Positions 7,069 to 63,838 of a stretch of DNA of 64,000 bases are shown here, piece by piece. The translations under genes and the position numbers were made by a program. Source of the stretch: Candidatus Omnitrophota bacterium (GTDB taxonomy: Bacteria; Omnitrophota; Omnitrophia; Omnitrophales; Aquincolibacteriaceae); the NCBI GenBank assembly GCA_035352955.1, contig DAOPYQ010000010.1:3145-67144 (forward strand). Direction: 5' to 3'. Numbering within the stretch: position 1 is the first letter of the stretch; each line of letters begins with the position of its first letter. The notes under the pieces were generated by a model. That model did not search any database. It was not told where the DNA came from and saw nothing but the letters and a program-made list of their open reading frames with translations.

Positions 7069-7109
7069 GCGCATCCAATCTGATCTTTGTCTCCCTATGA
7101 CATAAGGAG

Positions 7110-7290
7110 ATACGATAAAAATAAATCCCAAGTTGCTGATGAACGAGCGGGTCTAGGCCTATAACCTTCGGCGCTATGATAAGTAGAGGAATTTCAAACC
7201 TCATCGCCTTGAATCCTACATCTGGAGATTTATCGATGGTTTGGTTCTGGCGTCATTTAAAAAAAGAATTCCATTGTGAACGATCCCACA
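7110..7290 (+). pseudogene. Decayed remnant of the small sigma-region-2-like gene family. The intact copy is at 62326..62763.
   Basis: Nucleotide and peptide matches: GCCTATAACCTTCGGCGCTATGA...AATTTCAAACC encodes AYNLRRYDK*RNFKP, against KTYNLRYYDVQGNFKP in the intact copy. TCCTACATCTGGA and TTAAAAAAAGA are also shared. It contains stops. Confidence 0.5.
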
Positions 7291-7863
7291 ATCATGCTAT
7301 GCCGATGGGGGAAGGCTGCCAGTTGAAGAATTTGTTAAGGCTTGATAGGGTTCCACGTCTGCCCTTACTTTTTATGTCTATCTCTGATTTCAGGCTTTCA
7401 CCAAACTCGTTAATGATATATAAGGCGACATCAAAAATGATTACTACCGCATTCTTGTAGTATCACGAGGCCATTCTGGGACTGTTGGAAGAAGCTGCCA
7501 GTAAAACGCTCCCGAAGGGATCATTGACAGCCTTCATTTTCTGCAATAACATGCATTAATGTTCATATAAGCATATATGAAGAAAGCCGTATGCATGAAT
7601 TGTAGCGTCTGAAATGTGATTTTGCGTTAGAATGCCCTCCCGAAAAATGATCGTGAAGTTGGAAAGGGGGGGACCCGCCAATTTTCAAAGCAGGCAAGCT
7701 ATCTCGGTCCTCGGCGGAGCTTTAAGCGCGTTTTTGCCCGGCGGTTTTCTAAAGTGATAAAACACAGCATGATGCGGACATGTTTTGCGTCGGCAGCTTT
7801 TTTGAAAAATGGTTCCAATTTAAAAAAAACTTTTCTTTAACTTAATTATACGAAAGAGACCTC

Positions 7864-18490: not shown

Positions 18491-19259
18491 CACCGCCTAT
18501 AGATGACATGATCCCGCCGCTCTCTACCGCAAGGTAGCGCAGACGCACTAAATCCTTCAGATTAAAAATGTCGTTTTTTTTCTCCAAAGTACGACATAAC
18601 GCCTCAAATATCCGGAGCTTTGAACCGGACATTTCCTATCGTATTCAGCAAGAATAGGTTGCAGAAATTGGTGTATATAATAGTAGCATCATCAACTCAT
18701 GACATAGTTCGTGGCGATTGCTGAGATCATGACGCGTACATGACGTAAGCGCGTCACAAAAACGTCTGGCACGAAAGTGGCAGGCGTTGTTGTGCTTGAG
18801 GGTGGAGGTAGCCGTACAGGACATCCATAGTCCTGACGGCGTTGTCTTTGCTTATCGGAAACAGGGGCGAATCCATCCGGGCTCACTTGTCCTCGTTGTA
18901 CAAGCGCGGCATCGTAACGGCTTAATGAAGGCCGTTTACGATGACCGCATTTCTCTTGCCCCAATCTCAGCTACGCTTCGATTGATTGGAATTGGGGCTA
19001 TCTCCAAAACGGCCTTCAGTTTCACCCAGCCAGTTTCAGTTCATCTCTGATTCATTTCGTTTTTGAACATCAAGATAACATTGCTGAAACTGGAATGCTG
19101 CCCAAAATGCGGCCATTTTGGATTGAGTCTTTCTAGTCAGGGGAGGCATTAGGCGAGAATTTGCTGTTAGGCGAAATTGTCACTTTTCCTCTCAAGGCAG
19201 TAAGTGTAGGTTCTTTTTTAAGGAGTGGCATTCGAATCATTCGATTAAATTATGCAAAC

Positions 19260-24758: not shown

Positions 24759-24941
24759 ATGAGAATTCGAGAGGGGGGCATGATCAAAAAAATTCTTGTA
24801 GAGCTTGATAAAACGCCCGCTTCGGATTCGGTTATCAAATGCGCCGTTGAATTAGCCAAAACTCACAACGCGGAGCTTGCGGGCGTTACCCTGGTTGATT
24901 TAAGAAGTCGGGGATGCGGGTGTGATACTTCCGGGCGGTGA
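24759..24941 (+). pseudogene. Truncated universal-stress-protein (UspA) N-terminal fragment.
   Basis: IKKILVELDKTPASDSVIKCAVELAKTHNAELAGVTLVDL is a Usp N-terminus. The ORF stops after 60 aa, about 40% of a Usp domain. Confidence 0.4.
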
Positions 24942-25140
24942 TGCCCTTTGGGTGCTCGTTCATGCCGGTGATCTTTCGACGCCTCAGTGGATATCAGGCA
25001 GCTTAAAAACGATGAAAAAAAGAAAGCGGCGAATAATAGTTTTTTAAAATGTCATTATGCGTAAATTATGAACGACAAGATTTAATACTGGTTTTGTAAT
25101 GCTGTAACATGAACAATGCTCCGTTGTGTCGAAGACGTAT

Positions 25141-25440
25141 CGGAGTATTATCCGTAAGTATCCTAAAATATCCCTCCAAGAAGAGCGCTGATCGATTCGG
25201 GAAGCAAAACGCGGAGGCAAGGTGCAAGCCGAGGAGCTTGTCCTGCGGCACATCGGCTTCGTGATCTTCCGGATCCATAGGGGTGCTTTCCCGGTCTATG
25301 CCCGTCGTTTCGGGGAAGACATCCTGTCTCAGACGATCGTTGTTTTGTTTGAGTGTGTCCTGGCCTATAACCTTCGCTACTGTGACGAGCAGGGCATTTC
25401 AAGCCCGTCCGTTTTATGGGAACTGACATTTCATATCTAA
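25141..25440 (+). pseudogene. Decayed copy of the sigma-region-2-like gene (intact copy at 62326..62763). It carries a CGA->TGA nonsense change and a divergent, truncated C-terminus.
   Basis: About 80% nucleotide identity to 62340-62590. It encodes (I)RKYPKISLQEER*SIREAKRGGKVQAEELVLRHIGFVIFRIHRGAFPVYARRFGEDILSQ. Confidence 0.6.
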
Positions 25441-46100: not shown

Positions 46101-49100
46101 CCGGAAAGCTCCTACTTTTTTTCCCCGATGTACGGCGAGCTGGTCAATGAGGAAGACGCGCTTCTGACGGATCTGGCGGCGTATAACCGGGACAGGCCGG
46201 AATCTCAAAATAAAGACGCGGACATTTGCGGGCAGAAGGCGAGTGATGATAATTTTCTTAATCCGGTGACCCAATGGGACCGTCAGGGGATCCCGATTTC
46301 CGTGAGCGTTCCCCCGGCCGATATCCCGCATGTGAAGCACGTTCTTCTCCGTCTTCAACAGGTTCCGGCGGAGCGCCTCGATCAGACCACCAAACTTCCG
46401 CTTTCAGCCAGGGATATTGAACTGCTGGATCTCCGGGTGTCCGAGCTGAACGCGTCTCTTTTGGGGGAATCCCGGAAATTCCTGAAAACGGCCTACGAAT
46501 GGCACGACCGGTATCGTGAGGCGGGGTTCTACAGGAATTTTTACCGTTCGGACCTGAACCCTGTGGAGGGGCTCGGGAGTGTTCGGGAATTCTATTATCT
46601 GAGAAAGCTTATCCGGTCGAGGATGAGTGATTCGAGGAAGGATGATCCCGCAGAGCCGGTTACGAGCAAAACCGTGGCGGCGATGGTCAGGGTTCTTTCC
46701 AAAAACGGATTTTTGCTGCCTTACGAACAGGAAGGATTGATCCGGGGGTTCGTGTTTCTGGACGCTGTCCGGCGGGCGTATGGCAGGCTGGGGTTGACGG
46801 GATCTATCGATCCTTCCAGGCTTGAAGAATTGATCGCTGTTTTTTCCGAAGAAGAACCTGCGCCCTGGTTGCCGCCGCTTCCTCCGGATGCCACTGCGGA
46901 GGACCGGGCCAAAAGGGCGAACGCGTTTTACAAGCAGTATTTTTCCCATGCAAATCTTGTCTTTAATACGATGATACGGTACGTCCACGAGGGTTTCATG
47001 GAATTATTTCCGCCCGCGTCGGAAAATGTGCAGGTGATCGGAACGTTGAAGAGCGCGAACGGGCGCGAGATCCTGCTTCGCAGAGCCGATCGTTCCGGAG
47101 TCATGTTTGAGCGGGACGAAGGGTTCGTTTATAAAACGGCGGCGGAACTTTATGTCGAGCCTCAGGATATGGCCGCGCTGGATCAACTGCTCAAAGAGGA
47201 CCCCTCGGCGGTCATCGAACTTTTCAAAATGGTCGTGGGGCCGCGCGGAAGGCTGCGGATCGGCTATGGGATCCAGCGGGCGATCGTCAAAGCGGTTGCG
47301 ACCATGCCCGAGCGCCAGGATCTTTCTCCGGAGATGAGGTCCAAACTTGACCGGGCCTTGAAGGAATTTTTCACGATGCCCGAGGATATTTCGTACGCGT
47401 TTTGGCGCATGCACCGGTTCGGTTTTTTGAGAAAGTGTTGTCCGGGGTACGATGCCATGCGGGCGGATTTCCTGACGGGGGAAAACCGTTTTTCAGTTCA
47501 TATGGAGACGTTCCAGGCGATCGAATTCATGGAAGGACTGCCCAGACGCGGCGAGTTCGCCCTCGCGCATGCCAGGGAGGTTTCATTGAAGATCCGAAAA
47601 GACCAGGGCGAACACGCTTCCGGAATCCTCCGCCTGGCCGTATTTTTGGACGGGATCATGCGGAGTGTTTATAAGACCGCGCCGATGTCTCGCGATGAAG
47701 TCGCCGCGTTCGTGAATAAGGAGCTTGAATCCCGGGGATGGTCTGGGGAGGACCGCGCGAAGATCTCCTGGCTTATTTACGAGAAAAGGATCCTTGCGGA
47801 CCTCGATCCGATGTCGGACCAGGAAGTGGCCGAGACGCTTGCGAAAGTTCTCTCCGGATGGAACCAGAAATCCGGGATGATCGATCTTTTGTACATGATG
47901 CTTTTGGCGACGCGGATCGGTTCTATGAGGCCCAGCAAAATATTGCTGGCATTGCGCCAGGGCCCGGAATCGGGGCTTGCGGGCTGGGAGGAATTCCACC
48001 GGGTCGGGACCGCAGTCCTTGATAGCGGAACCCAAAAAAGTCCGTTGATTGACCTTTACCGTAGAGCGGGCGAAGTCCGCCAGTTCATGCTTGCGGAGGG
48101 GGCGGTCGGGGAGCTTGCGGGGGAACTTGCCGCGAGCATCAGGGATCCCAAGGTTTTTCAGCGGTTGTTCGATGAAGCGAACGTTGTGAATGTTCCTTTG
48201 TCGGCGGCAGAAAAGGGTCAGATCCTGGCTTTTCTGAGCGACCCGGATTTCTTTAAGGTTCTTTTCCAGAAATATGTTGAACGCTTCGGATGGCGTTATA
48301 TTCGTGCGCTCGACCTGGAGGAACACACGCGGGACCGCAAAACGATCCTGAAACAGCTTCTTTTTCTTGCGGCGCTGGAATTTTTGGCCGGGAAGGGTAA
48401 GTCGGATGCGCTGACGATCGCTGAATTTCCTCTTCCTTTGAGCGAGAACCGGGCGCCTTACGAGATCCTGATCGGGGTTCCTGTGGCGGATTCCGAGGTT
48501 CTGTCCGCCGTTCACCTTACCTCCAGGGCGCTTTACCAACACGGGTTTGTGATCGAAGATATGTCGGCATCGGTCCTTGGCACAGGGTCGGGGGTCGTGC
48601 TCCGGTTCCTCGGGGTTTTTCCCGCGAAAATTACGGATTCCGCCTCCGAGTTGCAAAAAGTCCGTACCGATCTACAGAAGATCTTTGAACGGCAAAAATG
48701 GTCGGTTGTCCGTTTCCTGAGTGGTTCTGACGAAAAACGGATCGTCGGTCGCCGGTATCATGCCATGGATAATTTGTTCCGCGGTCCCCTCCGCGTCTGG
48801 CGACGGGGTGCCGTGGGAGGCGCTGCTTCGCGGGTTAAATTGACACCGCACCGGTTTCGCAACAACGTGCTGGTCCTCAATGCCACGACGGTGGACTATC
48901 CGGGGCTGATCGCTTTTGTAAGTGGCATGCTCGCAAGAAATTATAAGCTGAACGGGCGCGATTTCAGCATGACGGACCTGAGCGGCGGGGTGACGCGTAT
49001 CATGGCCTACATTGAACGAGAAACAACCTCCGAAGAGCCGGGTTTTCAGCAGCGGATCGAAAAAGAGATGAAGGAACGGCTCGAGTATCCGGCGGCCGAG

Positions 49101-52100
49101 ATGGATGGATCGAAAATAAAGAATCTGAGTGAGGCCGACCGAGCTGAGAAACGGGGAGAGAAAAAGGAAGCGGTTGTTCGCGGAACAACGAAGGCCGGCG
49201 CCTCGGAAAGAAAGAAAGCTTCCGCGGAGAAAATCCAGAAGCCCACGGTCGATATGAATTGGAAAAAAATAAAAACGGATCAGGAGAGAACGCTTAAAAA
49301 CAGCGGCGTGAAATTCTATCCCGATGTCAGGGACGGCTCCGGTGCGGGATTTGAAGTCGAAATGGGTTCGGCGCGGTGGCAATACTGGCTCGAGACCGGG
49401 AAAGATCCGGTGTCCGAAAAGTCGTTCGTTCGGGTGATCAACTGGTTTGTGTCGCACGGGCGAAGGAGGGTCTTTCCCGAGCAATCAAGTTCGGATCGTT
49501 CCCTCAGCTTTCGTCCTCTCGAGAGTGCGGAGGGTCCGGTTCGTGCGATTGTGTCGGTCGGAATAAATGAAAAAGAAGGTATTTCCGTGACAATAGCGGA
49601 TGTAAGTCCCGCGGGATTTACGTCTCCGGTGGTCCGTTGGGCCGACAAGCCCGGAACTTCATCGGAAGAGATGCTTTTTGAGACTTCCAAGGGTTCTCCG
49701 ACATCATCTAAGGGTTCGGAAGGTTCTTCCGGGCTTCCCCAGCAATTGGGAGCTCCTGACGCGTTTCTTCCCGCGCACGCGGCTTCGCCATCGAGCGCAG
49801 AGCCGAGTTCGGGGGAGCTTTTGGCCAAAGATGATTCCAGCCTCGGAATGGCCGTCAGGGTTCCGAAAGACAGGCCTTTTTTAGTTGATGTCGGTCATCG
49901 AATCGTGACCCTTAATCCCGCGTTTGACAAGACTCGCTACCGGTTCCTGTCCGTTCCGGCCACGCGGTCTGAGGACGGAACGGTGATGACCGTTTACGAC
50001 CGGCTTGTGTGGGCCATGACGCAGGTTCTGGAAAACTGGGCTAAACTTCCCGAGGAAGTGAAATCCGGCGAGGAAAAACTGGTCTCCAGGCCGTCGGAGG
50101 CGGGCGTGATGACGCAGGCAAAAGGCGTGAAAATGACGGAGGACCCGGAATTGTTTGTGGCACGGAAAACAGCCGAACTTGGGAAGCTCTGGAAGATCCT
50201 CGGGGATTCCGGGCCTGATTTTGCGTGGGTGTTGGATGAAGATGCGCTGAAGGATTTTATGGCTGAAGCGGCTTATCGTAATCACCGGGGAGTTCGGGAA
50301 TTTATAAAAAAATATTTCGAGATGGTCCTTTTTTACGCGGAGGCCGGTCCGGAATTGCGCGGTGAGATGATGGCCGGTTTACGGGACAACCTGCCGGAAA
50401 AATTCCGGGGGAGGGTGTTTTCGTATACCGCGTTCGTAAAGGCCGCGCTTTTAAAAAACAGGCCCTTTTCCAAGACGGTCTTTCTCCGTGAACGTCCACC
50501 TTCTATTGTTGCATGGAAGGGAACCAAGGACGCGTCGTGGCAAAATTCAATGGCTTTCGAAAATTCGGTTTACCGTTTTGAACAAGGAGAAGATTGGTAC
50601 ATCGCGGCGTTTGCGGAATGGGCAGGGCGCACGTTCCTTTTCTACAAAACAACGCGTCTCCGTGACTGGCAGCATGCGGATTTTGTCCGTGAACTCGGAA
50701 GCCGTTACGAGCCCATGGCGGATGTCCCGGGGGGGATGACCCTTTTGTCGCCGCAACTTTCGGCCAAGATCGAAGCGCTTGTCGCCGGCACGCCCGGCGT
50801 GGTGAAAACGGTCGACAAGAGCGTTTTCGGGAATGTTGCCCGGGAAAAAGGGCTTGTTGGTTTTACGGATAATTCGGTGCTTGAAAAAGTCCTTGGCTCA
50901 AAAAAGCTGGAGGCCCTGAAACACGAGCTTGAAAACCTTTCGCTTGCGGACCGTCCGTATTTTGTCATGGTCTGGAAGCGGCCGCTTTTGGGAGCGTGGA
51001 TCGAAAAGCGGTTTGGCCGGTGGCTCGACAAGTGGCTGGGGAACAGTCTGTTGATTTGGTATAAAAAGTCCGCGAGCGCCCAGATCCGTCAGACGGTTGA
51101 ACGGATGGTTGCGATGCTGAAAGAGCGGGACCGTGTCTCAAAAGAGCGCGGGGTAAGCGCTGTCGCGTCCGGTCCCGATCTTGGGCAAACGGCTCCGAAG
51201 GACCGCGCAGAAAAGCGTGTAGGGGCGGTCACGAGGCCTCTTGAAATGTCCGCCGCAGAGGCGGCCCGGGTCCGCAAGATCTTCATTCTCGGCCACCAAG
51301 GGCAGGGTAACACGCAGCTGAGCTATGACGTTAAACACTTTTCGGTGCTGGTCCCGCTTCTTTTGACGCGGTTTCCGAACGCGCAGGTGGATATGGCGGT
51401 GGATTATGCCAACCTTTTTGCGGCGCGGCGTTTTGCCGACCGGGTCTCGATCGTGAGGGACCCCGCTTATTCCGAAAGGACAGAGCCACAGGAACCGGTC
51501 CGGGTGATCTATGTGCCTACGGGGGCGATCGCGGATGCCGTGGATCGCGGGAATTCCGCGGCCCTTGTCGATTGGCTCGCGGCCGGGGGTTATGATTACG
51601 TTCTGGATTTTGCGCAGTGCGGGGTGGGGCTTGAAGAATCCCTTTTTGAACTTTCTCAAAGACCGGCGCCCGCGGACGGTAGCGCCCGGCCGAAGCTTCC
51701 GGTGGCATTTCTCAATATGAGCCCGCTTCCCGGGACGAATCCTTCGATGACGGATGTGCCGGATCCCGTTTTTAGGGTCGATGTGAACCTTTCCGAGGGG
51801 GAGCATCTGTCCCGGGTCCGGGGGACTGAGGACCTTAACCGGACAACCCCGTTGGGCCGTGAGGCGCGGTATTGGGAGATGATCTTCCGGGTCTACCGGG
51901 AGATGGGGCTGTTGAGAGAAAGAATGGATCTTCAGCTGCTCGATCTCGGGAACTGGGGGCTGGATGATCTGGAGAAGGATTGGGTCAAGCCATCGCTGGA
52001 AGGAATGCTTCGTAGGAGTGGTCTTTCGGAATCGGAAGCCCGGGACGTTCTCGCCTCGGGGCGGAAATTCATTTATGTGAACGTTTTTTCGCACAGTTAT

Positions 52101-53945
52101 CCCGAGCTCGGAAGTCCGGAGATCTGGGAGCCGCTCCTCTCATGGGTTTTACGGAATACGGACAGTGTTCTTTTCTTTTCTCTGGGTGGCCGGAAGGATG
52201 AGGGCGATATCCGGCAACTCCGTGGGTTGACGCAGAAGCTTGCGGCCGAGAATCCGGAAGCGGCCAAGAGGATCGTGCTGGCGCCCGAGAATCTTTCGGT
52301 AACGCGTGTGATTCAATTGATGCGGGTTATGGACCTTGCGATGACGCCGGAACGTTCCGGTTTTTCGGACATTGCGACGGTGCTGAATGTTCCGCAGTTC
52401 GTGGTCGCTAAAGCAAACGATTCTCCCTACCTCACTTATCGGACGAATTCTGTGATCGCGGAACAGGGCGGTTTGCAAAAAACGGGAGAGATCGCGCAAA
52501 GTCTCTCCGCCCGGAAAGACCCGGTCCGGCTCCAGATCCTTGAAAACCGGACCAACAAAATGCCGAAGCATATTCTCCTGGTGGATGACGAACGCACGCT
52601 CCGTTACGTCACAGCGATGTTTTTGCGTGCGAAATACAGGGGAACGAAGGTCACCGAAGCGGGCGACGGGGAAGAGGCCCTGGCAATCCTCCGGGGGGAT
52701 CCTACGATCGATTTTCTTTTGACCGACCTGAAAATGCCGCGTGTCGACGGGATAGCCTTGTCGCGGCAGGCGAGTGATCTCCGGCCGGGGATGCCGATCC
52801 TTGTAATGTCGGCTTATCTGGGGACGGAGGATTCGTGGGCGAGGGAGCAGATTTCGGCGTTCCAGGTTTCCGGGATCCCGATTGCTTCGATCTTGAAGCC
52901 GTTTAAGGGCGAGGAGTTCGAGTCGGCGATCATTGACGTTCGTGCGGTTTCGGAAAATCAAAAATTGAAGGCACAAATCCCCGTTACGCCGGAAGAAGGG
53001 CTCCGGAAAGAGGGACGTGCGGAGCTGCGGTTGCAGGACCTGGACGGTTCGACGCCGGTGGCGAAGAGAATCCTCGGCAGAACGTTCCGGCCGGGGATCC
53101 TGGGTGTTGTGGACCGTTGGGTGCCCCAGGAATTTTTCCCGCAGATTTTTTCGGCTCGGGTTGTGACGGACGGCATGATGCATGCTCCGGGCGTGGCCTA
53201 TTACATGGCGGGCGGGGTCAATGAGGCAAACGTCGGAAAAGCGAATCTCTGGATCGCCGGGCAGTTGATCAGCGAAGAGCTTGCCGTCGCGCCGGGGATT
53301 TCGGACGCGCGGCTTGAAAAATTGCTGACGGTATTAAAAAGCGCTTTGCCGGCCGGCATTCAGCTGCTTTCGCTCGGGGAGCGGGAGGGACCTGAGGTTC
53401 ACGTGAATCTTTCCAATCTTACCGGAACGGACTGGACGGCGCTTTTAAGCGAAAAGAACTGGGTTCCGCTGGTTCCGGATTTTGGGGTCATGTTGGGTGC
53501 TTTGGCGGCCGTTCATGGAAAACTTCTGCTTAACGTGACCGCGGACGAACGGACGGCGCAGGTGATCGAACAAAAATTGCGCGGGGTGGCTGCGAAAAGC
53601 GGGATCTCGCTGGGGCGGAAAGAGCTTCGCTTGATCGCGACGGGCCGTCAGGATCCTTTCGCGTCGTTGTCCGGTGTGACGAAAGCGGATGCCCTGGTGG
53701 CGCAGAACCGGGGGATCCTGGAGCAGGTGGCCTATCGCAAGGGATTGGGATCGCGGTGGGTGACCGATGACGCCGGGGATATGAAGAGTCTTGTGGCCGG
53801 TATTACGACCATCCTCTACGCGGCGATGGACGAACGGGTCGACCGTTTCGGGATCCACCGTCCGTCGGAATATAACCACGGCGCCATGCTGAACGCCGTT
53901 CTCGACGCGATCAAGGGCTACGCCCAGCTCCTCATCGCGGCGTGA
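34152..53945 (+). CDS. Giant multidomain protein (6597 aa) with a signal/TM anchor at the N-terminus. The domains I could read are: a ChaN/TIKI-like region (~34.4-35.9 kb), internal tandem repeats (36.46-36.90 kb), a YvcK/CofD-like domain (~38.38-39.33 kb), a HAD-phosphatase DxDGT motif (~40.70 kb), a PTS-EI-like PEP-utilising phosphohistidine plus TIM module (~44.78-46.10 kb), a GlnD-like HD plus 2x ACT (~47.3-49.0 kb), a GT9-like glycosyltransferase (~51.27-52.41 kb) and a REC receiver (~52.57-52.94 kb).
   Basis: Single uninterrupted frame of 19.8 kb. Motifs: IQDAHANPEAQ / VVLITGGFHSEG; ESGGGAAV...GTDNGGGT...ADLILSGLSSWGTS; MTDMDGTM; GIFATQGDKGTHWVQLL + PLFPMVES + FGVMVETRS + FNFGTNDLTQ; ACT-like NNVLVLNATTVDYPGLIAFVSGMLARNYKLNGRDFSMTD; GT9-like RKIFILGHQGQGNTQLSYDVKHFSVLVPLL...YDYVLDF; HILLVDDERTLRYV...DFLLTDLKMPRVDG. 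Confidence 0.85.
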   Translation: MNKQSRPSWMCRGISFFVAVVFLTTTILWDPSAVLAAVGGMALREQEQFRKDLQSYLYTLPSEIGTLHEIVDGGGRRADGASSVSPTSNLQPPFEFVIHIQDAHANPEAQRNIYRTLKFLAEKYPGLSVAIEGAEGPLYPEYLDLFREFPAANQAVIEDLLQKGELTGAELFVWDNYRATRNAQGATGKTNALSVERGALIAPKVQGVENTELYASNLRAYRDLLFKRGDIQKLLIPIRERLEKESSRALNPGLRGFLKERDRRKEGRYDVSGTVSDANLQAYVRTLRKEISKTLAIDLNDAIEQLRFPNLVRVVLLEKNGQGFDRARAADEWKKLIEEIRPAAKTVAEKQLVEALSVYGAEKVGLEKNSATENSSAKVGRGMLGAPEALYPRKLLERLSVFARGHKIDLADRKAFLESLKFLIFQSEIDVTGLMSEMDSLESQLIAKLSRTDAEKEFVRQLENSGLLVKLLSLELSRAEYRKALEVRGDLAVLVKGNKNLLAALEKAFSFYEGTLKRDGALAENTLALSKQDGGRRMADGASGFSSPFMLHPSSRLVVLITGGFHSEGVREALVEQGAGYASLTPRISKTDHGEMYQRVMADDNADLSAYFKVKNPFLTKQEALLFKETLEIAAPVLSGTYQITGADKARRVQNAFADSPVLSRATAAENLQDPAELRFSPRSAGAMLPQNAAIPSVPVTAGQEFAAHVARAGSVVVSTVPADVSFTGPSVVTVSGARQLSGTFPGSSTATTPVDFRAEKRESPQTSSVAEGVEFSELLAGKVLSEGTKNRWRSLLASDPVFQEFIRRYRGSLEILVRSGRGEQAFARELLEKFPKTDWGASVAEGIELSALLAGEAFSPEAKDRWRALLGSDPAFKQFILKYRDRLELFAGSQSRGDREFAREVLGRVSRAELRAIEETNAKLEASDRAERRGVSYEAVFGVMNAGFLDRVRSGKTVSSDEHILMDLRSKALRELGAAFDEDSADEAVRRIREEVIPSFLVAADAGQRELLRDLLLKQARQYHELVRGFGTVAFDKDRDTRQTLGAKEDVHEDVLYASFQAMDMLTVLGDEKALTELINLSREGLQAHSQSRGLQKLIDGVDKLEKEQRQDDAWKALVEQSSVYEAVRRWTVQQCMLLQSVSRIARQLPQSGARDAAVRLLADILLDHDATAEGYYWLRQQAAYRLRDFDSDVAVQALDREASNKTRPPATTIFITPNLDAANDDTMSVQLQAGMSRMHIHRTRAFVSLRDHSDDFLSSPEFESSQNRFARLVGIQDALIDPVISEAIRIKTLERIGKAQGDAFALAGNILLDALEEMMAQKPGEIFSSKGRQGLLTPGVKKAALKAFMRIAGAVGSRLENNSKLYAGFRSAIGRAAANGSGIAEALHLTHVALANLDRIAQLASFEEGATRLDLSRNIIIESGGGAAVAMAGVVHRMTTDPALAVISGTDNGGGTLLVRGRNAAQFGVPTTAMGDTTRFACEAAVMESAPAALIIRALMSYRCSKGAKSFVDELGQIKDDLFKKARQANGEEAFKKVFDRVLEIAKRVDATGQAVEFNSVRNLVHDGLQLMTEGQGEESMNLDAVYAGFGLFRDLVGSKGFAVVDTPYGNEMVVTTNDGQEKIGQDFFSHTPSGTRFGRERRISRMKDVSNYYPDIPLHSRVSPTIKNADLILSGLSSWGTSLGILFKNPGIVSAMEANHKATKILLANPVRDDETRGMIWREAVDDFIHHMAGVPVESLWNRILTTANTDLDLPIDTAMPQMGTKRDAHDGKMGGYTGANTPTNADIEALQKRGIQVNVSRNWTEVKMTPRRTNPDLFNASILAVSEELAQALWEIMKTTTQKKLTPLPIFTLIERHEELSEKLQQAGLTLEMLGLSDVHKLIFHPGLVKEFTAWLNEGTVPAWIAEKGPEEGWVEYTLRRAIEETTGTRMDPGAIRLDRPLTILQKGGRTVMVEFLSKERTDQVFHASRVPIASDLNKRREEATHRLGKVDFTDYVTKKTVTILFPNELLTVGRNPKDRLDRLKAVLQFQIEKMDWILQDKDAVRLSESNPEAFVGGLAAAGFRIAESLTDEIRILNLEQAIAPTGVGEAQDIFRGHLLSVVEQGLGQAVAVRKEAAYREHLEFLLHLESLAEKDKAADGKDETVAGRNAFLKLIGELSVAIPYQRFLRIAQAQGKVPVTMTDMDGTMSAAGTELTTPMAHAHHDAATSETSAIHYITGQDFRGPKKQIIEPMKQIERILSWLSIRTGVALSREGMHQIFQNMSFGACAGSALFIYKKGVGYIKVNQRSIPKKQVDLIVLASRLSMPKVPYEIEGYQIELREPQMVQRPDGSWKALGFASVAILPSGRFDSKRNWDLPPEAKLRKKQAAIMEALLSDPGEMLRIVKQLLGKGKNADWEFTVRGKDGAERRIKVLPEQKEAVLELFKKNKDKWENPGQIAPIIISAQAGGSTTTDVSGRSKAEGVDFALSDPDFNEIPAIQGRDVTVAAIGDEMQQFESEDPDRPGEKIQSRGNDFAMAEDPVAEIGLLVHTGSWGGTLPNTATAYDPRGIEPFITVDLVTYSGRAVARGENVKRVLEMEKEEPDRFGDISKYLVTSLEDLNESQASELLIARGAGRLEIRAKTGVSSLEASDRAERRTAEDLARAVIDLKMTDPADVEVLRYIQGRLLEKAEKGLKGISGLLSPQQSFNASAGIVADMIGAGTEASDRPLFERMAAFILRPTLDGKFSPRDDRLFEAVRTLFSFTEGVAPSKLRFSGAVRAIGDLLQPGVSLTGGKLRVHENIRQQQAEHFLRLVKTLEGRNERADPSIEQMVINYLLYTGMSRLFREHLVLHTREYSGAAVQKAFLILDAVDKATGRRGELRADAARGFELRYDKASGNYILVKNKREIERISFYRGPIAVAGDLVRALQSEGISVVRDPGDVSRIIFGAGPEAVGESVSVSNFQKLQEWVACSPALAAGAAAAKEPQHPINFFRDGLFVQHIFPEEAAKSGRGVRAERRDAVVEPGPAAEVEGQEEIVMKAKALPISSVSGTVLFMPRTKLSLYWYVDAENLPAALATTLRFTEEMSEDLGVMFPKSTGAYRPFVDLEYYKQKASTLLKEVLELPLPDQGQTGKGLQKVRELFKYRHFLPFVRIGVSEREVLIAKFEKLVAEEADRRDSEIVNSLIQLQGLSYEHWLELKLVLATVQREALQGQALLENMPTLNTATADQWGSPEMVRELGILLSNLGKSHPARSHPALVRFLEDYHDADIASSGAEEGRDLEELIVALKKNGKPEATLLHPLAAISNFLVDEEPQPEPGELGMWRNGFFMDHVRDRIALLSHRARVQQQKEQGENGDELLEKEWALALRAIQGIERQFMAEAQSLESRLRGYHEREKKVAEYKARRANPVGLNAEDLRSLDRKIKDGEQFLEEFKDLSSSLARSQSNMVNLKSNFLNDLNDPEFKIRAFAAVKVSGESLIEYLYREKSGDMRMVTGLALRTLLEELPEASRVMKRGMADLVSNYHVGLRRILETFDDEEKPAAEKSQGSERVWGDGKGPVVVLIRGFVVDSQVENIRKILGKRLVGIFATQGDKGTHWVQLLLSRSNRPGLAFLSEGKYKDLLDNIREGDTVALKLQEGSEEAEVIHHPSAKTLAEIHAAQREEALLRGGEKILEAARTRVPVRVTLDTQNPDALKAEGSAGAGLVRGDVMNHAMRRRYSAVLEAIGRNKFDFEGWFRLWGTVDFRGMKSGADLDHFQQDLTRVLDVDALMEVQGFLAELVAEDLALLRNARGRVPFRTIDLVNDDSKGQEMVNLILEMQRRYPHSNLVRDLNKGFFSFHFYENSQAGLFVLIKQLTAEFIAAHQLAEEGGSPQLAPLFPMVESAAQIDFIQREVLPVATRLAVWNIASQKMKEQNLSNGERFELLRKIEESMREQVLGKTRFGVMVETRSLLRDPEERKKIIAHPLVSFFNFGTNDLTQQAASDAIGHNVRRDDPESSYFFSPMYGELVNEEDALLTDLAAYNRDRPESQNKDADICGQKASDDNFLNPVTQWDRQGIPISVSVPPADIPHVKHVLLRLQQVPAERLDQTTKLPLSARDIELLDLRVSELNASLLGESRKFLKTAYEWHDRYREAGFYRNFYRSDLNPVEGLGSVREFYYLRKLIRSRMSDSRKDDPAEPVTSKTVAAMVRVLSKNGFLLPYEQEGLIRGFVFLDAVRRAYGRLGLTGSIDPSRLEELIAVFSEEEPAPWLPPLPPDATAEDRAKRANAFYKQYFSHANLVFNTMIRYVHEGFMELFPPASENVQVIGTLKSANGREILLRRADRSGVMFERDEGFVYKTAAELYVEPQDMAALDQLLKEDPSAVIELFKMVVGPRGRLRIGYGIQRAIVKAVATMPERQDLSPEMRSKLDRALKEFFTMPEDISYAFWRMHRFGFLRKCCPGYDAMRADFLTGENRFSVHMETFQAIEFMEGLPRRGEFALAHAREVSLKIRKDQGEHASGILRLAVFLDGIMRSVYKTAPMSRDEVAAFVNKELESRGWSGEDRAKISWLIYEKRILADLDPMSDQEVAETLAKVLSGWNQKSGMIDLLYMMLLATRIGSMRPSKILLALRQGPESGLAGWEEFHRVGTAVLDSGTQKSPLIDLYRRAGEVRQFMLAEGAVGELAGELAASIRDPKVFQRLFDEANVVNVPLSAAEKGQILAFLSDPDFFKVLFQKYVERFGWRYIRALDLEEHTRDRKTILKQLLFLAALEFLAGKGKSDALTIAEFPLPLSENRAPYEILIGVPVADSEVLSAVHLTSRALYQHGFVIEDMSASVLGTGSGVVLRFLGVFPAKITDSASELQKVRTDLQKIFERQKWSVVRFLSGSDEKRIVGRRYHAMDNLFRGPLRVWRRGAVGGAASRVKLTPHRFRNNVLVLNATTVDYPGLIAFVSGMLARNYKLNGRDFSMTDLSGGVTRIMAYIERETTSEEPGFQQRIEKEMKERLEYPAAEMDGSKIKNLSEADRAEKRGEKKEAVVRGTTKAGASERKKASAEKIQKPTVDMNWKKIKTDQERTLKNSGVKFYPDVRDGSGAGFEVEMGSARWQYWLETGKDPVSEKSFVRVINWFVSHGRRRVFPEQSSSDRSLSFRPLESAEGPVRAIVSVGINEKEGISVTIADVSPAGFTSPVVRWADKPGTSSEEMLFETSKGSPTSSKGSEGSSGLPQQLGAPDAFLPAHAASPSSAEPSSGELLAKDDSSLGMAVRVPKDRPFLVDVGHRIVTLNPAFDKTRYRFLSVPATRSEDGTVMTVYDRLVWAMTQVLENWAKLPEEVKSGEEKLVSRPSEAGVMTQAKGVKMTEDPELFVARKTAELGKLWKILGDSGPDFAWVLDEDALKDFMAEAAYRNHRGVREFIKKYFEMVLFYAEAGPELRGEMMAGLRDNLPEKFRGRVFSYTAFVKAALLKNRPFSKTVFLRERPPSIVAWKGTKDASWQNSMAFENSVYRFEQGEDWYIAAFAEWAGRTFLFYKTTRLRDWQHADFVRELGSRYEPMADVPGGMTLLSPQLSAKIEALVAGTPGVVKTVDKSVFGNVAREKGLVGFTDNSVLEKVLGSKKLEALKHELENLSLADRPYFVMVWKRPLLGAWIEKRFGRWLDKWLGNSLLIWYKKSASAQIRQTVERMVAMLKERDRVSKERGVSAVASGPDLGQTAPKDRAEKRVGAVTRPLEMSAAEAARVRKIFILGHQGQGNTQLSYDVKHFSVLVPLLLTRFPNAQVDMAVDYANLFAARRFADRVSIVRDPAYSERTEPQEPVRVIYVPTGAIADAVDRGNSAALVDWLAAGGYDYVLDFAQCGVGLEESLFELSQRPAPADGSARPKLPVAFLNMSPLPGTNPSMTDVPDPVFRVDVNLSEGEHLSRVRGTEDLNRTTPLGREARYWEMIFRVYREMGLLRERMDLQLLDLGNWGLDDLEKDWVKPSLEGMLRRSGLSESEARDVLASGRKFIYVNVFSHSYPELGSPEIWEPLLSWVLRNTDSVLFFSLGGRKDEGDIRQLRGLTQKLAAENPEAAKRIVLAPENLSVTRVIQLMRVMDLAMTPERSGFSDIATVLNVPQFVVAKANDSPYLTYRTNSVIAEQGGLQKTGEIAQSLSARKDPVRLQILENRTNKMPKHILLVDDERTLRYVTAMFLRAKYRGTKVTEAGDGEEALAILRGDPTIDFLLTDLKMPRVDGIALSRQASDLRPGMPILVMSAYLGTEDSWAREQISAFQVSGIPIASILKPFKGEEFESAIIDVRAVSENQKLKAQIPVTPEEGLRKEGRAELRLQDLDGSTPVAKRILGRTFRPGILGVVDRWVPQEFFPQIFSARVVTDGMMHAPGVAYYMAGGVNEANVGKANLWIAGQLISEELAVAPGISDARLEKLLTVLKSALPAGIQLLSLGEREGPEVHVNLSNLTGTDWTALLSEKNWVPLVPDFGVMLGALAAVHGKLLLNVTADERTAQVIEQKLRGVAAKSGISLGRKELRLIATGRQDPFASLSGVTKADALVAQNRGILEQVAYRKGLGSRWVTDDAGDMKSLVAGITTILYAAMDERVDRFGIHRPSEYNHGAMLNAVLDAIKGYAQLLIAA
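36458..36900 (+). repeat. Intragenic tandem duplication of two ~219-nt (73-aa) units inside the giant ORF.
   Basis: VAEGVEFSELLAGKVLSEGTKNRWRSLLASDPVFQEFIRRYRGSLEIL... is followed immediately by VAEGIELSALLAGEAFSPEAKDRWRALLGSDPAFKQFILKYRDRLELF... Confidence 0.7.
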
Positions 53946-54013: not shown

Positions 54014-54091
54014 GTCCCCATCGTCTAGGTCGGCCTAGGACACTAGATTTTCATTCTAGTAACAGGGGTTCGAATCCCCTTGGGGACGCCA
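54014..54091 (+). tRNA. tRNA-Glu (anticodon UUC).
   Basis: Cloverleaf folds by hand: acceptor GTCCCCA/TGGGGAC, anticodon stem CTAGA/TCTAG with loop TTTTCAT (anticodon TTC, A37), T-arm GGGGTTCGAATCCCC, discriminator G, encoded CCA. Near-identical to canonical bacterial tRNA-Glu. Confidence 0.9.
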
Positions 54092-54092
54092 A

Positions 54093-54135
54093 TTATCGCA
54101 GGTGGCTTTTGCCGCCTGCGGTAATTGCTTTTATG
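54093..54135 (+). terminator. Hairpin (CGCAGGTGGC-TTTT-GCCGCCTGCG) followed by a T-rich tract immediately 3' of the tRNA.
   Basis: Inverted repeat with one mismatch, read directly. Downstream TTTTATGG. Confidence 0.4.
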
Positions 54136-54138
54136 GTT

Positions 54139-54305
54139 GGGGATTTGAAGGGAGTCCCGCTTTGAAATATGACTGACGTCATATTTTAGGGGCGGGTGGC
54201 CGACCCGGAACGAAGTGAAGGGCGCCAAATCCCTCCCAACGCTGATCGCCTTGGGACGTTAAACAAATCGAAACTTGTGGTTTCGATTTAACGTTGGGGA
54301 CGCCA
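54139..54305 (+). repeat. Copy A of a ~170-nt repeat element. It begins GGGGATTTGAAG, contains a 17-bp hairpin (CGTTAAACAAATCGAAAC-TTGTG-GTTTCGATTTAACG) and ends TTGGGGACGCCA, identical to the tRNA-Glu 3' end.
   Basis: Aligned by eye with copy B at 63662..63838. Shared blocks: GTGGCCGACC, GAAGGCGCC, CTCCCAA, TTGGGACGTTAAA.AAATCGAAACTTGTGG.TTCGATTTAACGTT.GGG. Confidence 0.6.
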
Positions 54306-54470: not shown

Positions 54471-54900
54471 ACGTTCTCGCGACTTACGCCAAGTCTAAAA
54501 TCCGAGCTATTCCGCAGATCCGCTGGTTTCAAAACCACAAACCAGTAGCAAACTACTTTGAGCCAATAATTCGCGATCTATCTCTAAATAGGACATAAAA
54601 GTGGTCAAGCTAGTTTTGCGTTCAATCATTGATTCATTAGCAATCCGTATGGATCTGAAACTGCAATGTTGGCTTGATTGACGACTGCAGACGAGGGTAT
54701 CTCTAGCTTTGGCAGTGCGTTAAACGGTGGAGATCAGCTGGGGGCAGGCTGATAGTTGCTTATCCCAGTCCATTTCGATCGATATTGCTTTTTGAATGTC
54801 TCTTTTCTAACCAATAACGTCATTAGGTGCGCTTTTCTTTCTATCTGGCTTTCTCATTCATAATTGACGTGATAGAGAAAGGTTGCTATGATTCCGCACC

Positions 54901-55188
54901 ATGCGTAAGAAATTTATTTGGATATTAGCCATTGTTGCTTTAATCGGCTTTGTGAATTGTGTGCTTGTGGAACCGGCGTTTGCCTATCAAGAACATGCTG
55001 CCGGTTCTTCAGTAAATGATTCTCACGGATGTATGATTTGCAATACCGGCGCGCATCAGTGGATCGCTCTGCAGCCTGTGCTGCCAATTGGGGTCCCTGA
55101 TTTTACGCATGCAGTCTATCTTCCCTCCATCAACATTCCCATAGACCCCTCTCTCGGGTCAATCTTTCATCCACCGACTCTTTTCTAA
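54901..55188 (+). CDS. Small exported hypothetical protein with a Cys/His cluster (HGCMICNTGAH). Possibly a metal-binding periplasmic protein of the czc island.
   Basis: Signal peptide MRKKFIWILAIVALIGFVNCVL. Sits at the head of the low-GC metal-resistance cluster. Confidence 0.4.
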   Translation: MRKKFIWILAIVALIGFVNCVLVEPAFAYQEHAAGSSVNDSHGCMICNTGAHQWIALQPVLPIGVPDFTHAVYLPSINIPIDPSLGSIFHPPTLF

Positions 55189-62325: not shown

Positions 62326-62763
62326 ATGTGGAAGTCTTATCGAGACATTAACCGTAAATATCCCAAAATTTCCCTCCAAGAAGAACGACGATTAATCCGT
62401 GAAGCTAAGCGCGGCGGCAAGGCGCAAGCTGAAGAATTAGTGCTTCGGCATATCGGATTCGTGATCTTCCGAATCAATAAACGTGCTTTTCCGGCCTATG
62501 CCCGTCGATTCGGCGAAGACTTACTCTCTCAGGGGATTTTCCTTCTTTACGACAAGATCAAAACCTATAACCTCCGTTATTATGACGTGCAGGGGAATTT
62601 CAAGCCTGTCCGATTTGTCTCCTACATCTGGAAAGCCGTGGACGGTCTTATCCTCGCTTCGCTTAAAAAAGAGCTTCGACACGAGAAACTTCAAAGACAA
62701 CCAAACTGGGAGAGGTGGAGGTATGAAGATCCTGTGCAGCAGTTGCAAGAAGCTAATGGGTGA
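62326..62763 (+). CDS. Small sigma-70 region-2-like protein (145 aa). Region 2.1-2.4-like, with no region 4.
   Basis: AEELVLRHIGFVIFRINKRAFPAYARRFGEDLLSQGIFLLYDKIKTYN parallels sigma-70 region 2 (LVESNLRLVVSIAKKY...DLIQEGNIGLMKAVDKFD). YIWKAVDGLILASLKK is region 2.3/2.4-like. This is the intact member of a three-copy family in this window. Confidence 0.55.
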   Translation: MWKSYRDINRKYPKISLQEERRLIREAKRGGKAQAEELVLRHIGFVIFRINKRAFPAYARRFGEDLLSQGIFLLYDKIKTYNLRYYDVQGNFKPVRFVSYIWKAVDGLILASLKKELRHEKLQRQPNWERWRYEDPVQQLQEANG

Positions 62764-63352
62764 ACAAAAACCGTTTGAAGATCAATCTGAAGTGCATGCC
62801 AAATGTGCTGATTGCGCACAGAGAGAAAAAGATGCGGAGATTGAAAGAGTCGCTAAAGAACCTTTGCCCGGATCTAAAAAGCAGCGGGTTGTTGAGCTAG
62901 AGAATGGATTGCAGGGGTTAATCACGATTGGAGGAAAGGAAACGCCGAATCTTTCATTTTGGGATGTTCTTTTTGCAGATAAACAGTTCTTCTGCTGCAA
63001 GGACAAGCGGAAAGAATTCGATGGGTATTTAGGCAGTCTTCGGGGTGATCTGATAGATATTACATTCCTGCATTCTATGGAGGCTTATCTTGATCTTCCG
63101 AAGCGTGGAAAGCGGAAGAAGCTAAATGCTGAAGAGCCAAAAGCGGAGGAGGGGAAGAGGGAATCAATTAATTATAATTGCACGATCCGGGTTCCCAAAG
63201 AGTATGCCGTCCATGTTTTTGAGACCAAGACAAGACAGAACATGGAGATCATAGGTATTCTTGCGGAGGGTATTGAAAAGCAGTACTGGAAGGAGAAAGA
63301 AGCAGAGAAAGCCGCTGCCTCTCCAAGCCCCTCTTTTGATGTCGGTCTATGA
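62723..63352 (+). CDS. Hypothetical zinc-ribbon protein (CxxC...CxxC N-terminus), overlapping the end of the sigma-like gene.
   Basis: GGAGGT RBS then ATG 62723. MKILCSSCKKLMGEQKPFEDQSEVHAKCADCAQ. Confidence 0.45.
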   Translation: MKILCSSCKKLMGEQKPFEDQSEVHAKCADCAQREKDAEIERVAKEPLPGSKKQRVVELENGLQGLITIGGKETPNLSFWDVLFADKQFFCCKDKRKEFDGYLGSLRGDLIDITFLHSMEAYLDLPKRGKRKKLNAEEPKAEEGKRESINYNCTIRVPKEYAVHVFETKTRQNMEIIGILAEGIEKQYWKEKEAEKAAASPSPSFDVGL

Positions 63353-63609
63353 AAATGTCCACTTCGACGAGGTTGGACAAACGCATCTCATTTATCAATA
63401 ATAAGTTAAGTATAAATCAACCTCTCTAAAACTGGACAAATTGGACAAAATTCGGCTCATTTTGCCTCATGATGACCTCAAGACATGGGCAAAGAGTCGG
63501 ATAATCTGGCATCTCCGATCTCCCATAATTGCTGGATATAATGTAGCGCTTCGATTATAATTTCGCCCATTCGTCCCGAGAGGATCGCGGTTCCATGACA
63601 TCCTAGGGA

Positions 63610-63650
63610 CGCCAAAAATACCCGATGGTTTTAAATCATCGGGTATTTTT
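63610..63650. terminator. Perfect 13-bp hairpin AAAATACCCGATG-GTTTTAAATC-CATCGGGTATTTT followed by a T-run. Looks like a bidirectional terminator.
   Basis: Read directly. It is preceded by TAGGGACGCCA, which resembles the tRNA-Glu 3' end. Confidence 0.45.
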
Positions 63651-63661
63651 GTTTCTACGGC

Positions 63662-63838
63662 GGGGATTTGAAGAGAGCGCTTGTGTACAATAATGACTCA
63701 TGTCATGATCGTAAGTACGAGTGGCCGACCTGAAGTGAGTGAAACGAACGGAAGGCGCCGAATTCTCTCCCAAAGCCAATTGTTTTGGGACGTTAAAGAA
63801 ATCGAAACTTGTGGCTTCGATTTAACGTTAGGGGCACT
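63662..63838 (+). repeat. Copy B of the ~175-nt repeat element (see 54139..54305).
   Basis: About 70% identity to copy A in ordered blocks, including the long hairpin TTGGGACGTTAAAGAAATCGAAACTTGTGGCTTCGATTTAACGTTAGGGG. Confidence 0.6.

Follow-up and report, generated by a model that had tools for sequence, protein, structure and literature searches.

A predicted free-standing sigma-70 domain 2 encoded repeatedly at gene-block borders in an Omnitrophota contig

In sigma factors, domain 2 binds the core RNA polymerase and melts the -10 box, and domain 4 reads the -35 box. The best-known case of a factor that consists of domain 2 alone is, to our knowledge, gp55 of phage T4, which needs special co-activators: this late factor reads a -10-like TATAAATA box and depends on gp33 and the sliding clamp. 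Sigma functions are also carried by small polypeptides without the full set of domains in SigO-RsoA, the two-piece sigma of Bacillus subtilis, and Orf7 of the conjugative transposon Tn916 belongs to a family of small sigma-like regulators, PF12645 (HTH_16). Orf7 and Orf8 of Tn916 activate their own promoter, with read-through into xis/int (PMC5812530). Here we describe a gene for a 145-aa protein, predicted to comprise sigma-70 domain 2 and no other sigma domain, that is located at 62326..62763 of a 64,000-nt stretch (hereafter, the window) of contig DAOPYQ010000010.1 from a Candidatus Omnitrophota bacterium. We denote the gene and its family sigma2. The interpretation that we favour, with a probability of roughly 0.55, is that the product is a minimal RNA-polymerase-binding sigma-2 factor carried at the borders of integrative modules.

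The existence of the intact 145-aa open reading frame (ORF) is confirmed, as proposed in an earlier note on this DNA. That note also described a sigma-70 region-2-like core with no region 4, a description that holds for the fold and for the missing region 4 and finds no counterpart in Pfam, where the product matches no family at E <= 1. In the AlphaFold2 model (predicted local distance difference test, pLDDT, 84), the protein folds into five helices, and residues 86-92 make a short loop that resembles a hairpin. When this model was compared to the Protein Data Bank (PDB) with Foldseek, the best 41 matches were all sigma factors (among them sigma32, sigmaS, sigmaE and SigC), headed by sigma32 in the holoenzyme (E 0.011, probability 1.0); the isolated region 2 of sigmaE (template modelling score, TM, 0.81 on the target) and region 2 of SigC were matched as well. 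Among the viral models of BFVD, the best matches are phage sigma factors, with a gp55 homologue at rank 14 (TM 0.57). Sequence profiles give fainter signals, namely weak NCBIfam matches to SigI, RpoH and SigE only (12-17 bits, against curated cut-offs of 319-349), a match to the sigma-factor family PHROG 351 at E 3e-6, and weak matches of two of 32 aligned family members to Sigma70_r2 (PF04542; best E 0.0065, under the cut-off); the window protein itself reaches the curated cut-off of neither NCBIfam TIGR02937 nor Pfam Sigma70_r2. Taken together, the structural matches in PDB and BFVD and the weak matches to SigI, RpoH, SigE and PHROG 351 bear out the likeness to sigma region 2.

An alignment of 32 homologues (A1) contains 35 invariant columns within residues 1-120, followed by a variable tail. 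Invariant or nearly so are G63, E64, D65, L67, S68, Q69, F97, S99, Y100 and W102; on inspection, G63-Q69 appear to fit the core-binding motif of region 2.2, and F97, S99, Y100 and W102 the aromatic residues of regions 2.3/2.4. Assigned by eye, the conserved blocks would correspond to region 1.2 (Y..I..YP.LS.EEE..LI), 2.1 (ELVLRHI.FV), 2.2 (GEDLLSQ, cf. DLxQE) and 2.3/2.4 (RFVSYIWK.IDG), the last of which compares with FSTYATWWIRQ in the sigma-70 consensus. Ahead of region 2.3 there is a family-specific insertion of 8 residues (YDKQGNFKPV), which the model shows as a beta-hairpin-like loop, and the C-terminal tail is short and rich in Trp and acidic residues. Region 4 is absent: the ORF stops at 145 aa, the 120 homologues listed are 121-225 aa long and none carries a Pfam domain, and in an exhaustive profile search of 1.84 billion representatives, which returned only 159 clusters, all 113 at E <= 1e-10 are <=224 aa. 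The nearest full-length sigma factor, P0246 (257 aa; P-numbers denote homologous proteins from the family search), possesses the Pfam region 4, scores above the TIGR02937 sigma-70 superfamily cut-off, lacks the 8-residue insertion and aligns to the family with an hhalign probability of 97.9 and 42% identity. A distant relative, P0256, matches PF12645 (27.1 bits, cut-off 22) and is linked to the family with an hhalign probability of 96.

Thus, the product is very probably a free-standing sigma-70 domain 2 (regions 1.2-2.4) without domains 3 and 4. As it scores under the curated hidden Markov model (HMM) thresholds and the domain 4 that defines sigma factors is missing, it does not count as a canonical member of the sigma-70 family. 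With sigma-70 groups 3-4 (RpoH, SigI, FliA/WhiG, ECF), it shares the fold, the order of regions 1.2 and 2.1-2.4, an EDLLSQ motif where sigma factors bind the core enzyme and F/Y/W residues where they melt the -10 box, but it has no regions 3 and 4, contains the 8-residue insertion and the Trp/acid-rich tail, and falls under the Pfam Sigma70_r2 cut-off. Like T4 gp55, it has one sigma-2-like domain only, lacks region 4, is of comparable size and would have to function without a reader of the -35 box; unlike gp55, the family is cellular, with no relatives in IMG/VR or INPHARED, has no detectable sequence similarity to gp55, and has yielded neither a gp33-like partner nor a clamp-binding motif. 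Orf7 of Tn916 is comparable in being a small (~140 aa) sigma-region-2-like protein encoded, as sigma2 is in some loci, beside recombinase genes of integrative elements, but the link to PF12645 goes solely through P0256, as neither the window protein nor the 32 aligned members match this family; neither conjugation genes nor Orf8/Orf9 partners were seen at sigma2 loci, most of which also lack an adjacent recombinase. In contrast to SigO-RsoA, no conserved adjacent partner gene was found for sigma2 in 79 loci.

Could the likeness to sigma factors be a fortuitous resemblance between helical bundles, with an unrelated function? The lack of a Pfam match and the modest Foldseek E-values, none better than 0.011, would allow this, but sigma factors make up nearly all of the top matches from the two structure libraries, independent HMM comparisons lead to SigI/RpoH, PHROG 351, P0246 and P0256, and the motif positions agree with regions 1.2, 2.2 and 2.4, so that we consider this explanation most improbable. 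Another conceivable explanation is that the short ORFs are the 5' halves of full-length sigma genes that were split by an element, in the manner of sigK and skin, with region 4 encoded far downstream. Large serine recombinases related to XisF/CcrB are indeed encoded 0.1-2.3 kb downstream of sigma2 in several loci, but most loci lack a recombinase, the more than 600 clusters all end at 130-160 aa, with few conserved tail types and stop codons of their own, and the closest full-length sigma is 42% identical and has no 8-residue insertion. A split gene of this type is largely refuted by the short length and the conserved tails and stops across the family, and we give it next to no credence. Binding of the product to core RNA polymerase, predicted from the fold and from the conserved residues at the 2.2 and 2.3/2.4 positions, is fairly probable. 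Like other sigma-2 domains, the protein would dock on the beta-prime clamp helices of the core enzyme via its 2.2-like surface and then either support a minimal '-10-only' initiation at a few promoters, as T4 gp55 does, or compete with the housekeeping sigma.

The gene is not alone on the contig. The copies are listed below in window numbering; contig positions refer to a numbering in which the window spans 3268-67267 of 68,686 bp.

Copy 1, 62326..62763, + strand: intact ORF of 145 aa, predicted stand-alone sigma-70 domain-2 gene, HNX69273.1 (ORF list, AlphaFold2, Foldseek).
Copy 2, 25126..25415, + strand: pseudogene retaining codons 1-97 (blastn, repeat search, in-frame translation).
Copy 3, 7106..7342, + strand: 3' relic of ~237 nt, codons ~63-139, of the subfamily with the '...HERSHHQPDWGRLP' tail (blastn, tblastn).
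Copy 0, contig 1921-2349, 918-1346 nt upstream of window position 1, + strand: intact gene for 142 aa, HNX69235.1.

Copy 0 was found in locus L095 and also in L090 (L-numbers denote fetched loci), 19.5 kb of which agree with the window at 99.97% identity, and all four copies are on the + strand within 68 kb. Thus, the window contains one live and two dead copies, the three-copy family of the earlier note, and the contig contains four. The deposited metagenome-assembled genome (MAG) labels HNX69235.1 and HNX69273.1 'hypothetical protein' of Candidatus Omnitrophota bacterium. Copy 1 starts 26 nt past the stop of a CDF transporter gene and lacks a Shine-Dalgarno sequence. Copy 2, which had been put at about 80% identity to copy 1, is 75.5% identical over 290 nt by blastn against the window (25127..25415, E 3e-53) and 77% identical over 233 nt in the repeat search (pair D1); its nonsense TGA and truncated 3' end stand as described. 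It starts with GTG instead of ATG, has the in-frame TGA at 25189-25191 (EER*SIREAKRGG) where the intact copies have Arg22, suffered a 1-nt deletion near 25396, and loses all similarity beyond codon ~97, at 25415, with the residual ORF extending to 25440. Copy 3, first given as a remnant of ~180 nt at 7110..7290, is an eroded relic of greater length: blastn of copy 1 against the window covers 107 nt of it (7158..7264, 69%, E 2e-6), and tblastn with a closer family member extends the match to 7106..7342 (residues 63-139, 52% identity, E 3e-16). The 5' third of this copy (the first 62 codons) is missing, the preceding MarR ORF stops at 7068, and the remainder is disrupted by TAG codons at 7154-7156 and 7184-7186 and by one surplus A in the A-run at 7259-7265. 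The repeat search reports the same pairs of copies as blastn (D1 and D3), and blastn of the copy 1 region against the whole window detected no further similar stretch above noise. Nor are there shared terminal sequences at the flanks of the three window copies, blastn similarity being confined to the ORF. The protein encoded by copy 2 is most similar to P0036 (76%, compared to 60% for copy 1) and that of copy 3 to P0058/L016 (60%, compared to 45% for copy 1); being closer to these proteins than to copy 1, the two dead copies do not derive from it, and the earlier view of them as eroded copies of the intact gene has to be given up. Judging from the sequences, the contig copies represent three or four distinct, old paralogue lineages and not recent duplicates.

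The family includes 622 clusters at 90% identity. Contigs of one genome per species gave 121 matches, of which 79 loci were fetched, nearly all from Omnitrophota, and the named homologues listed also come from Omnitrophota MAGs; divergent members occur in MAGs deposited as Elusimicrobiota (where NCBI taxonomy files Candidatus Obscuribacterium magneticum), Planctomycetia, 'delta proteobacterium' and Bacteroidota. Several genomes supply two or three loci, and the number of copies in a genome ranges from one to several. For codons 1-120, the Nei-Gojobori method yielded proportions of synonymous (pS) and non-synonymous (pN) differences of 0.63-0.86 and 0.03-0.10, respectively, including copy 0 versus copy 1 with 0.81 and 0.10; the combination of saturated synonymous sites with low pN indicates strong purifying selection and old paralogy. 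Source records label the family members 'hypothetical protein' or give them a generic automatic sigma-subunit name, there is no Pfam model, and our literature searches found no description of the family. A large, strongly conserved cellular family that keeps domain 2 alone is unusual. If its members bind the polymerase, they would show how a minimal sigma factor works in an uncultured phylum with very small cells and giant genes, and would also provide a marker sequence for the flexible part of Omnitrophota genomes; furthermore, because the family is unnamed, even a simple binding result would be new information.

Each of the four copies separates different gene blocks. From the gene calls with Pfam annotation, the order is TauE, DUF1634, copy 0, MarR, RND efflux, MarR and copy 3; after copy 3 come SulP, ArsR, EIIA, an Mrp/complex-I-like cluster, LysR, MscS and Rnk, then saccharopine dehydrogenase, GreA, an acetyltransferase, a fragment of universal stress protein (Usp) and copy 2. 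These are followed by a cluster of lipoprotein and ABC exporter genes, a gene of 6597 aa and tRNA-Glu, and finally by a small Cys-rich protein, CzcCBA, P-II, CDF, copy 1, an ORF with CxxC motifs, a methyltransferase and an IS3-type transposase. The claim that the copies sit where both gene content and G+C content (GC) change is valid for the block borders in every case, for GC at copy 3 (0.54 -> 0.43 -> 0.51) and, roughly, for GC at copy 2 (0.49 -> 0.56, about 0.6 kb downstream). It fails for GC at copy 1, where both flanks are at 0.42-0.43 with no shift, the real GC shift of the surrounding island being at tRNA-Glu (54.0 kb). Under the interpretation favoured here, sigma2 units would ride at the edges of integrative modules or serve as joints for module exchange, and the modules would also break the units, so that module turnover would leave truncated copies behind. 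On the contig, copy 0 precedes the MarR-RND block, copy 3 lies between the RND block and sulP, copy 2 precedes the lipoprotein/ABC/giant-gene block, and copy 1 is at the far end of a tRNA-Glu-linked czc island.

A different view of the same arrangement is prompted by copy 2. Its position is orthologous to that of sigma2 in L009 and L017, where the order is Rnk, saccharopine dehydrogenase (92% aa identity), GreA, Usp, Na/H exchanger and sigma2. Both loci hold a full Usp gene and the Na/H exchanger at this site; the window has lost the exchanger, and its Usp gene is reduced to the following remnant.

Usp fragment, 24759..24941, + strand: 60 codons of universal stress protein, the scar of a Usp - Na/H-exchanger pair.

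The conserved synteny implies that copy 2 is a decayed orthologue at an old position and not a recent arrival. The sigma2 genes might be ordinary resident paralogues of a lineage-specific transcription factor family, perhaps involved in ion or metal homeostasis, such that the dead copies result from paralogue loss in a decaying region, in this case accompanied by the loss of the neighbouring Usp and exchanger, and the block borders are incidental. The saturated synonymous divergence between the copies, which bespeaks old paralogues, the recurrent cation/metal neighbours (see below) and the lack of phage or plasmid relatives are all on the side of this explanation. What it does not readily accommodate is the presence of four copies in 68 kb, all of them where one gene block gives way to another, the tight adjacency to Fic genes and integrases in other loci, the many toxin-antitoxin, restriction-modification and AlbA_2 neighbours, the conservation of a compact unit around the gene despite differing flanks, and the broken copies found in about one locus in ten. 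On balance, we regard resident paralogy as a doubtful account of the whole, albeit one that carries a real share of the probability.

The neighbours of sigma2 in the fetched loci show that the family genes lie in the flexible genome, edging accessory gene blocks. In 12 of the 14 cases with a Fic-domain gene, this gene is no more than 250 nt away from sigma2 (P 3e-8), and all four Xer-like tyrosine integrases are within 0.8 kb (P 0.009). Other recurrent neighbours, named by sequence appearance alone, are RelE, HicAB, HEPN-MNT pairs, ArsR, PhoU and a ClC channel; AlbA_2 proteins, a type I restriction system, an IS3 transposase and a terminase-like gene (named from sequence) that adjoins an HTH_3/ImmA pair (Pfam) are found as well, along with many genes related to cations and metals (Na/H exchanger, CzcCBA, CDF, NikR, Fur, Znu-like ABC). 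Most loci contain no recombinase, and no conjugation genes were seen. In 61 of 73 loci, the gene upstream of sigma2 points the same way (median gap ~55 nt). Genes for tRNAs lie within 1.8 kb in about ten loci, compared to an estimated six or so expected by chance at one tRNA gene per 50 kb, which is no clear enrichment. A conserved 3.5-kb module consisting of sigma2 and a serine recombinase is shared by L007, L009, L012 and L017 behind three different upstream contexts; the homology starts within 13 nt of the sigma2 ATG and stops at the stop codon of the recombinase, and sigma2 is followed by a largely non-coding 1.3 kb, which includes a palindrome with an 18-bp stem (CTCGACCAC.CTCTC..GAGAG.GTGGTCGAG), and then by the CcrB/XisF-like large recombinase gene. 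A non-random link between sigma2 genes and module borders is, in our assessment, moderately probable. The suggestion that the gene travels with a mobile or integrative element is borne out in part: it is favoured by the flexible-genome neighbours, the block borders and the tRNA-Glu island and weakened by the absence of phage and plasmid relatives, the lack of shared terminal sequences and the old synteny of copy 2. That sigma2 regulates such an element, we consider unlikely, if not remotely so, and a gene that acts as a junction for recombination or integration (L005 versus L013) is a no less viable account.

The broken copies amount to about one locus in ten, with the breakpoints at codon ~63 in copy 3, ~97 in copy 2, 16 in L005 and 74 in L024. 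One pair is L013, where gene f35 is directly followed by an intact sigma2, and L005, where the same synteny runs into a 16-codon 5' fragment of sigma2; this fragment is followed by a truncated tyrosine integrase and then by a hairpin and a promoter that precede a complete sigma2, with unrelated genes beyond. In L024, codons 1-74 of sigma2 are fused to an AlbA_2 gene; L073/L075 and L078 contain short internal fragments; and in L023 the gene is interrupted by a 77-nt insertion (10055-10131) with inverted ends (CTGATCTT..AAGATCAG) that looks like a miniature inverted-repeat element. An intriguing parallel is offered by islands that take over the end of a gene. Staphylococcal cassette chromosome (SCC) elements integrate at the 3' end of rlmH with CcrAB. 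Other islands integrate at the 5' end of dusA by means of dusA-specific integrases (PMC4482086). As in these systems, L005 has an integrase beside a gene whose end it would have replaced, with a fragment at the other junction, and CcrB-like recombinases adjoin sigma2; in contrast to them, sigma2 shows no fixed att core, several breakpoint codons and one clear case of a fragment with an integrase.

The sigma2 genes could be preferred targets of integration or recombination instead of cargo, the gene being restored at one junction and a partial copy left at the other. Apart from the comparison of L005 with L013, this possibility is suggested by the start of module homology so close to the sigma2 ATG, by the affinity of the neighbouring recombinase to CcrB/CcrC/XisF, by the window relics, which are both cut inside the ORF, and by the precedent for islands that replace the 5' end of a gene (PMC4482086). 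It runs into difficulty with the breakpoints, because cuts at codons as different as 16, 63, 74 and 97 imply that there is no single att core. A search for isolated 5' fragments as att scars turned up only L005/L006, and the 10 kb downstream in L097 contain no sigma2 remnant. In L080, a tRNA-Ala gene is followed by an integrase gene and sigma2, so that the usual target, the tRNA gene, adjoins the pair and sigma2 would be inside the element. A target role, moreover, accounts for the location of the gene and not for the activity of the protein. We deem it unlikely. Target and resident-paralogue explanations are both compatible with the same protein function.

None of the upstream regions compared contains a Shine-Dalgarno sequence, and several subfamilies keep a promoter-like pair, with 8-10 nt between the end of the -10 hexamer and the ATG; seven loci (L041, L043, L046, L052, L057, L062, L064) have TTGGTT-N16-TGTATAAT, ending 9 nt before the ATG. 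The lack of a Shine-Dalgarno sequence combined with a -10 hexamer so near the start codon suggests leaderless messages. Some subfamilies form a compact unit of ~0.8-0.9 kb that consists of the gene, its own promoter and a conserved non-coding stretch: in L090, L011, L015, L019 and L027, homology extends for no more than ~50 nt upstream and 300-400 nt downstream of the ORF, and the flanks differ. The non-coding tail of the copy 0 subfamily is ~80% identical, compared to a difference of 63-66% at synonymous sites, and, being better conserved than synonymous sites, must be functional; it contains hairpins and GGACA/TGTCC repeats and then TTGACA-18-TATGAT. A related tail is located behind copy 1, after the ORF that follows it.

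CxxC...CxxC ORF, 62723..63352, + strand: 209 aa, sharing 41 nt with the tail of copy 1, with TATGAA at 62722-62727 and 63348-63353.
Conserved non-coding element, 63353..63570, + strand: directly after the CxxC ORF, with TGGACAAA at 63374, 63433 and 63442.

The first 50 nt of this element equal the C-terminal tail (ENVH..LIYQ*) of P0004/P0007-type members, and at 63533-63561 it has a promoter-like TGGATA-17-TATAAT pointing away from the gene; related tails are found behind the sigma2 genes of L013, L016 and L094. Across the mapped sites (window 63353-63570, L090 1220-1630, L016 10430-10640, L094 4846-5000), the tails comprise GGACA/TGTCC repeats (TGGACAAATTGGACAAA), hairpins and an outward promoter of the sigma-70 type. 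The CxxC ORF is an orphan: among 5.8 billion proteins, it has a single other homologue, which is encoded in L094, again immediately after a sigma2 gene. As an aside, an exact deletion between the TATGAA repeats would give a 149-aa sigma2 ending in ...ENVHFDEVGQTHLIYQ*, with a tail as in P0004 and P0007. A role of the CxxC ORF as an anti-sigma or region-4 partner was considered and rejected as a general feature, given the single homologue and the members that have the same tail and no such ORF.

Outward promoters occur on the gene strand in 24 of 78 loci, compared to four on the opposite strand; however, any gene with a co-directional successor would produce such a bias, and for this reason only the conservation of the flanks is counted as evidence. 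Close to sigma2 genes, at distances up to 250 nt, palindromes of the form AATGTC-N8-30-GACATT are ~16 times as dense as in the rest of the fetched loci, an estimate that rests on this looser pattern because a strict count of perfect-stem hairpins was too strict to use. They are located at 678-748 and 1267-1361 of L090, that is, in the flanks of copy 0, and in L005, L011, L014, L027, L032 and L087; one example, GAATGTCGCTTTTC..GAAAGCGACATTC, forms a 15-bp stem in the RNA fold. The flanks of all three window copies lack such palindromes, and a search of the conserved non-coding flanks against Rfam gave nothing at or near gathering scores. An elaborate scenario that would bring these features together is that the ~0.85-kb unit is a portable 'driver and junction' cassette, in which a gene for a sigma-2-only factor, with a leaderless promoter of its own, is joined to a conserved region of GGACA repeats and a promoter that points outward; the minimal sigma would drive outward transcription into the module and the units would be joints for swaps by integrases or CcrB-like recombinases. 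This scenario as a whole is a long shot. If true, it would amount to a new module-shuffling system in Omnitrophota, with a logic similar to that of integrons or SCC arrays and built on a one-domain sigma.

The block that contains copy 1 has the anatomy of a tRNA-linked island, being adjacent to a tRNA gene, bounded by direct repeats with the tRNA 3' end and deviant in GC.

tRNA-Glu (UUC), 54014..54091, + strand: left edge of the island, where GC falls from ~0.58 to ~0.43 (Rfam 57 bits, ARAGORN, composition).
Left direct repeat, 54065..54305, + strand: 3' end of tRNA-Glu plus ~215 nt, with GGGACGCCA at 54083 and 54297 (repeat search, pairwise alignment A3).
Right direct repeat, 63587..63835, + strand: tRNA 3'-end fragment (GGTTCC...GGGACGCCA, 63587-63614) plus ~220 nt.

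Between these repeats lies the 9.5-kb low-GC czc/CDF block (GC 0.41-0.46, versus 0.53-0.60). The 9-mer GGGACGCCA recurs at 54083, 54297 and 63606, and the doubling of this tRNA 3' end, together with the third 9-mer, suggests remnants of nested or tandem integration. The map of the window now includes, beside the four copies, a tRNA-Glu-linked czc island with defined ends and two relics that mark joins or losses of blocks. A small Cys-rich secreted protein (~95 aa) is encoded at 54889-55176, ahead of the czc operon; a similar protein recurs beside the sigma2-adjacent czc genes in L042 and L060.

Several observations weigh against a minimal sigma factor carried at module borders. With respect to the protein, the Pfam Sigma70_r2 model is unmatched at its cut-off, RNA polymerase binding and promoter specificity are predictions from the fold, with no partner protein to accompany them, and neighbour clustering over the 79 loci produced no universal partner gene. 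As regards mobility, there are no relatives in IMG/VR, PLSDB or INPHARED, and an origin from a phage or plasmid was rejected on these zero matches. Large serine recombinases of the CcrB/CcrC/XisF type are within 2.4 kb of sigma2 in eight of ten cases in the fetched loci, which is not significant under a conservative null (P 0.10). In the island, no integrase is present among the genes called between 54.3 and 63.6 kb and the two repeats, of ~230 nt each, are only about 78% identical; no empty tRNA-Glu site was found in one scan of metagenome contigs with an exact 20-mer, the sole match being unrelated and due to chance. The order of Na/H exchanger and sigma2 is kept across divergent genomes (L009, L017, L051), as would be the case for an ordinary resident gene. 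Finally, only 48 of 73 loci have a downstream gene that points the same way as sigma2 (median gap ~190 nt), which is weak for a role of sigma2 as the driver of the next module.

Elsewhere in the window, ~1.5 kb at 17778-19259 is devoid of a long ORF and may be another decayed junction. A 39-aa fragment of Peptidase_S24 (LexA-like) is called at 20507-20626 of L090, which corresponds to window positions 18370-18489, and in L014, L016 and L026 a sigma2 gene is located upstream of the same LysR-f25 block. The 6597-aa gene is a single ORF at 34152-53945 with a match to Response_reg and a weak one to PEP-utilizers_C; it contains internal repeats of 78 nt and 29 nt (34364/35747 and 36924/42048, respectively) and is overlapped by many long antisense ORFs, which are probably spurious.

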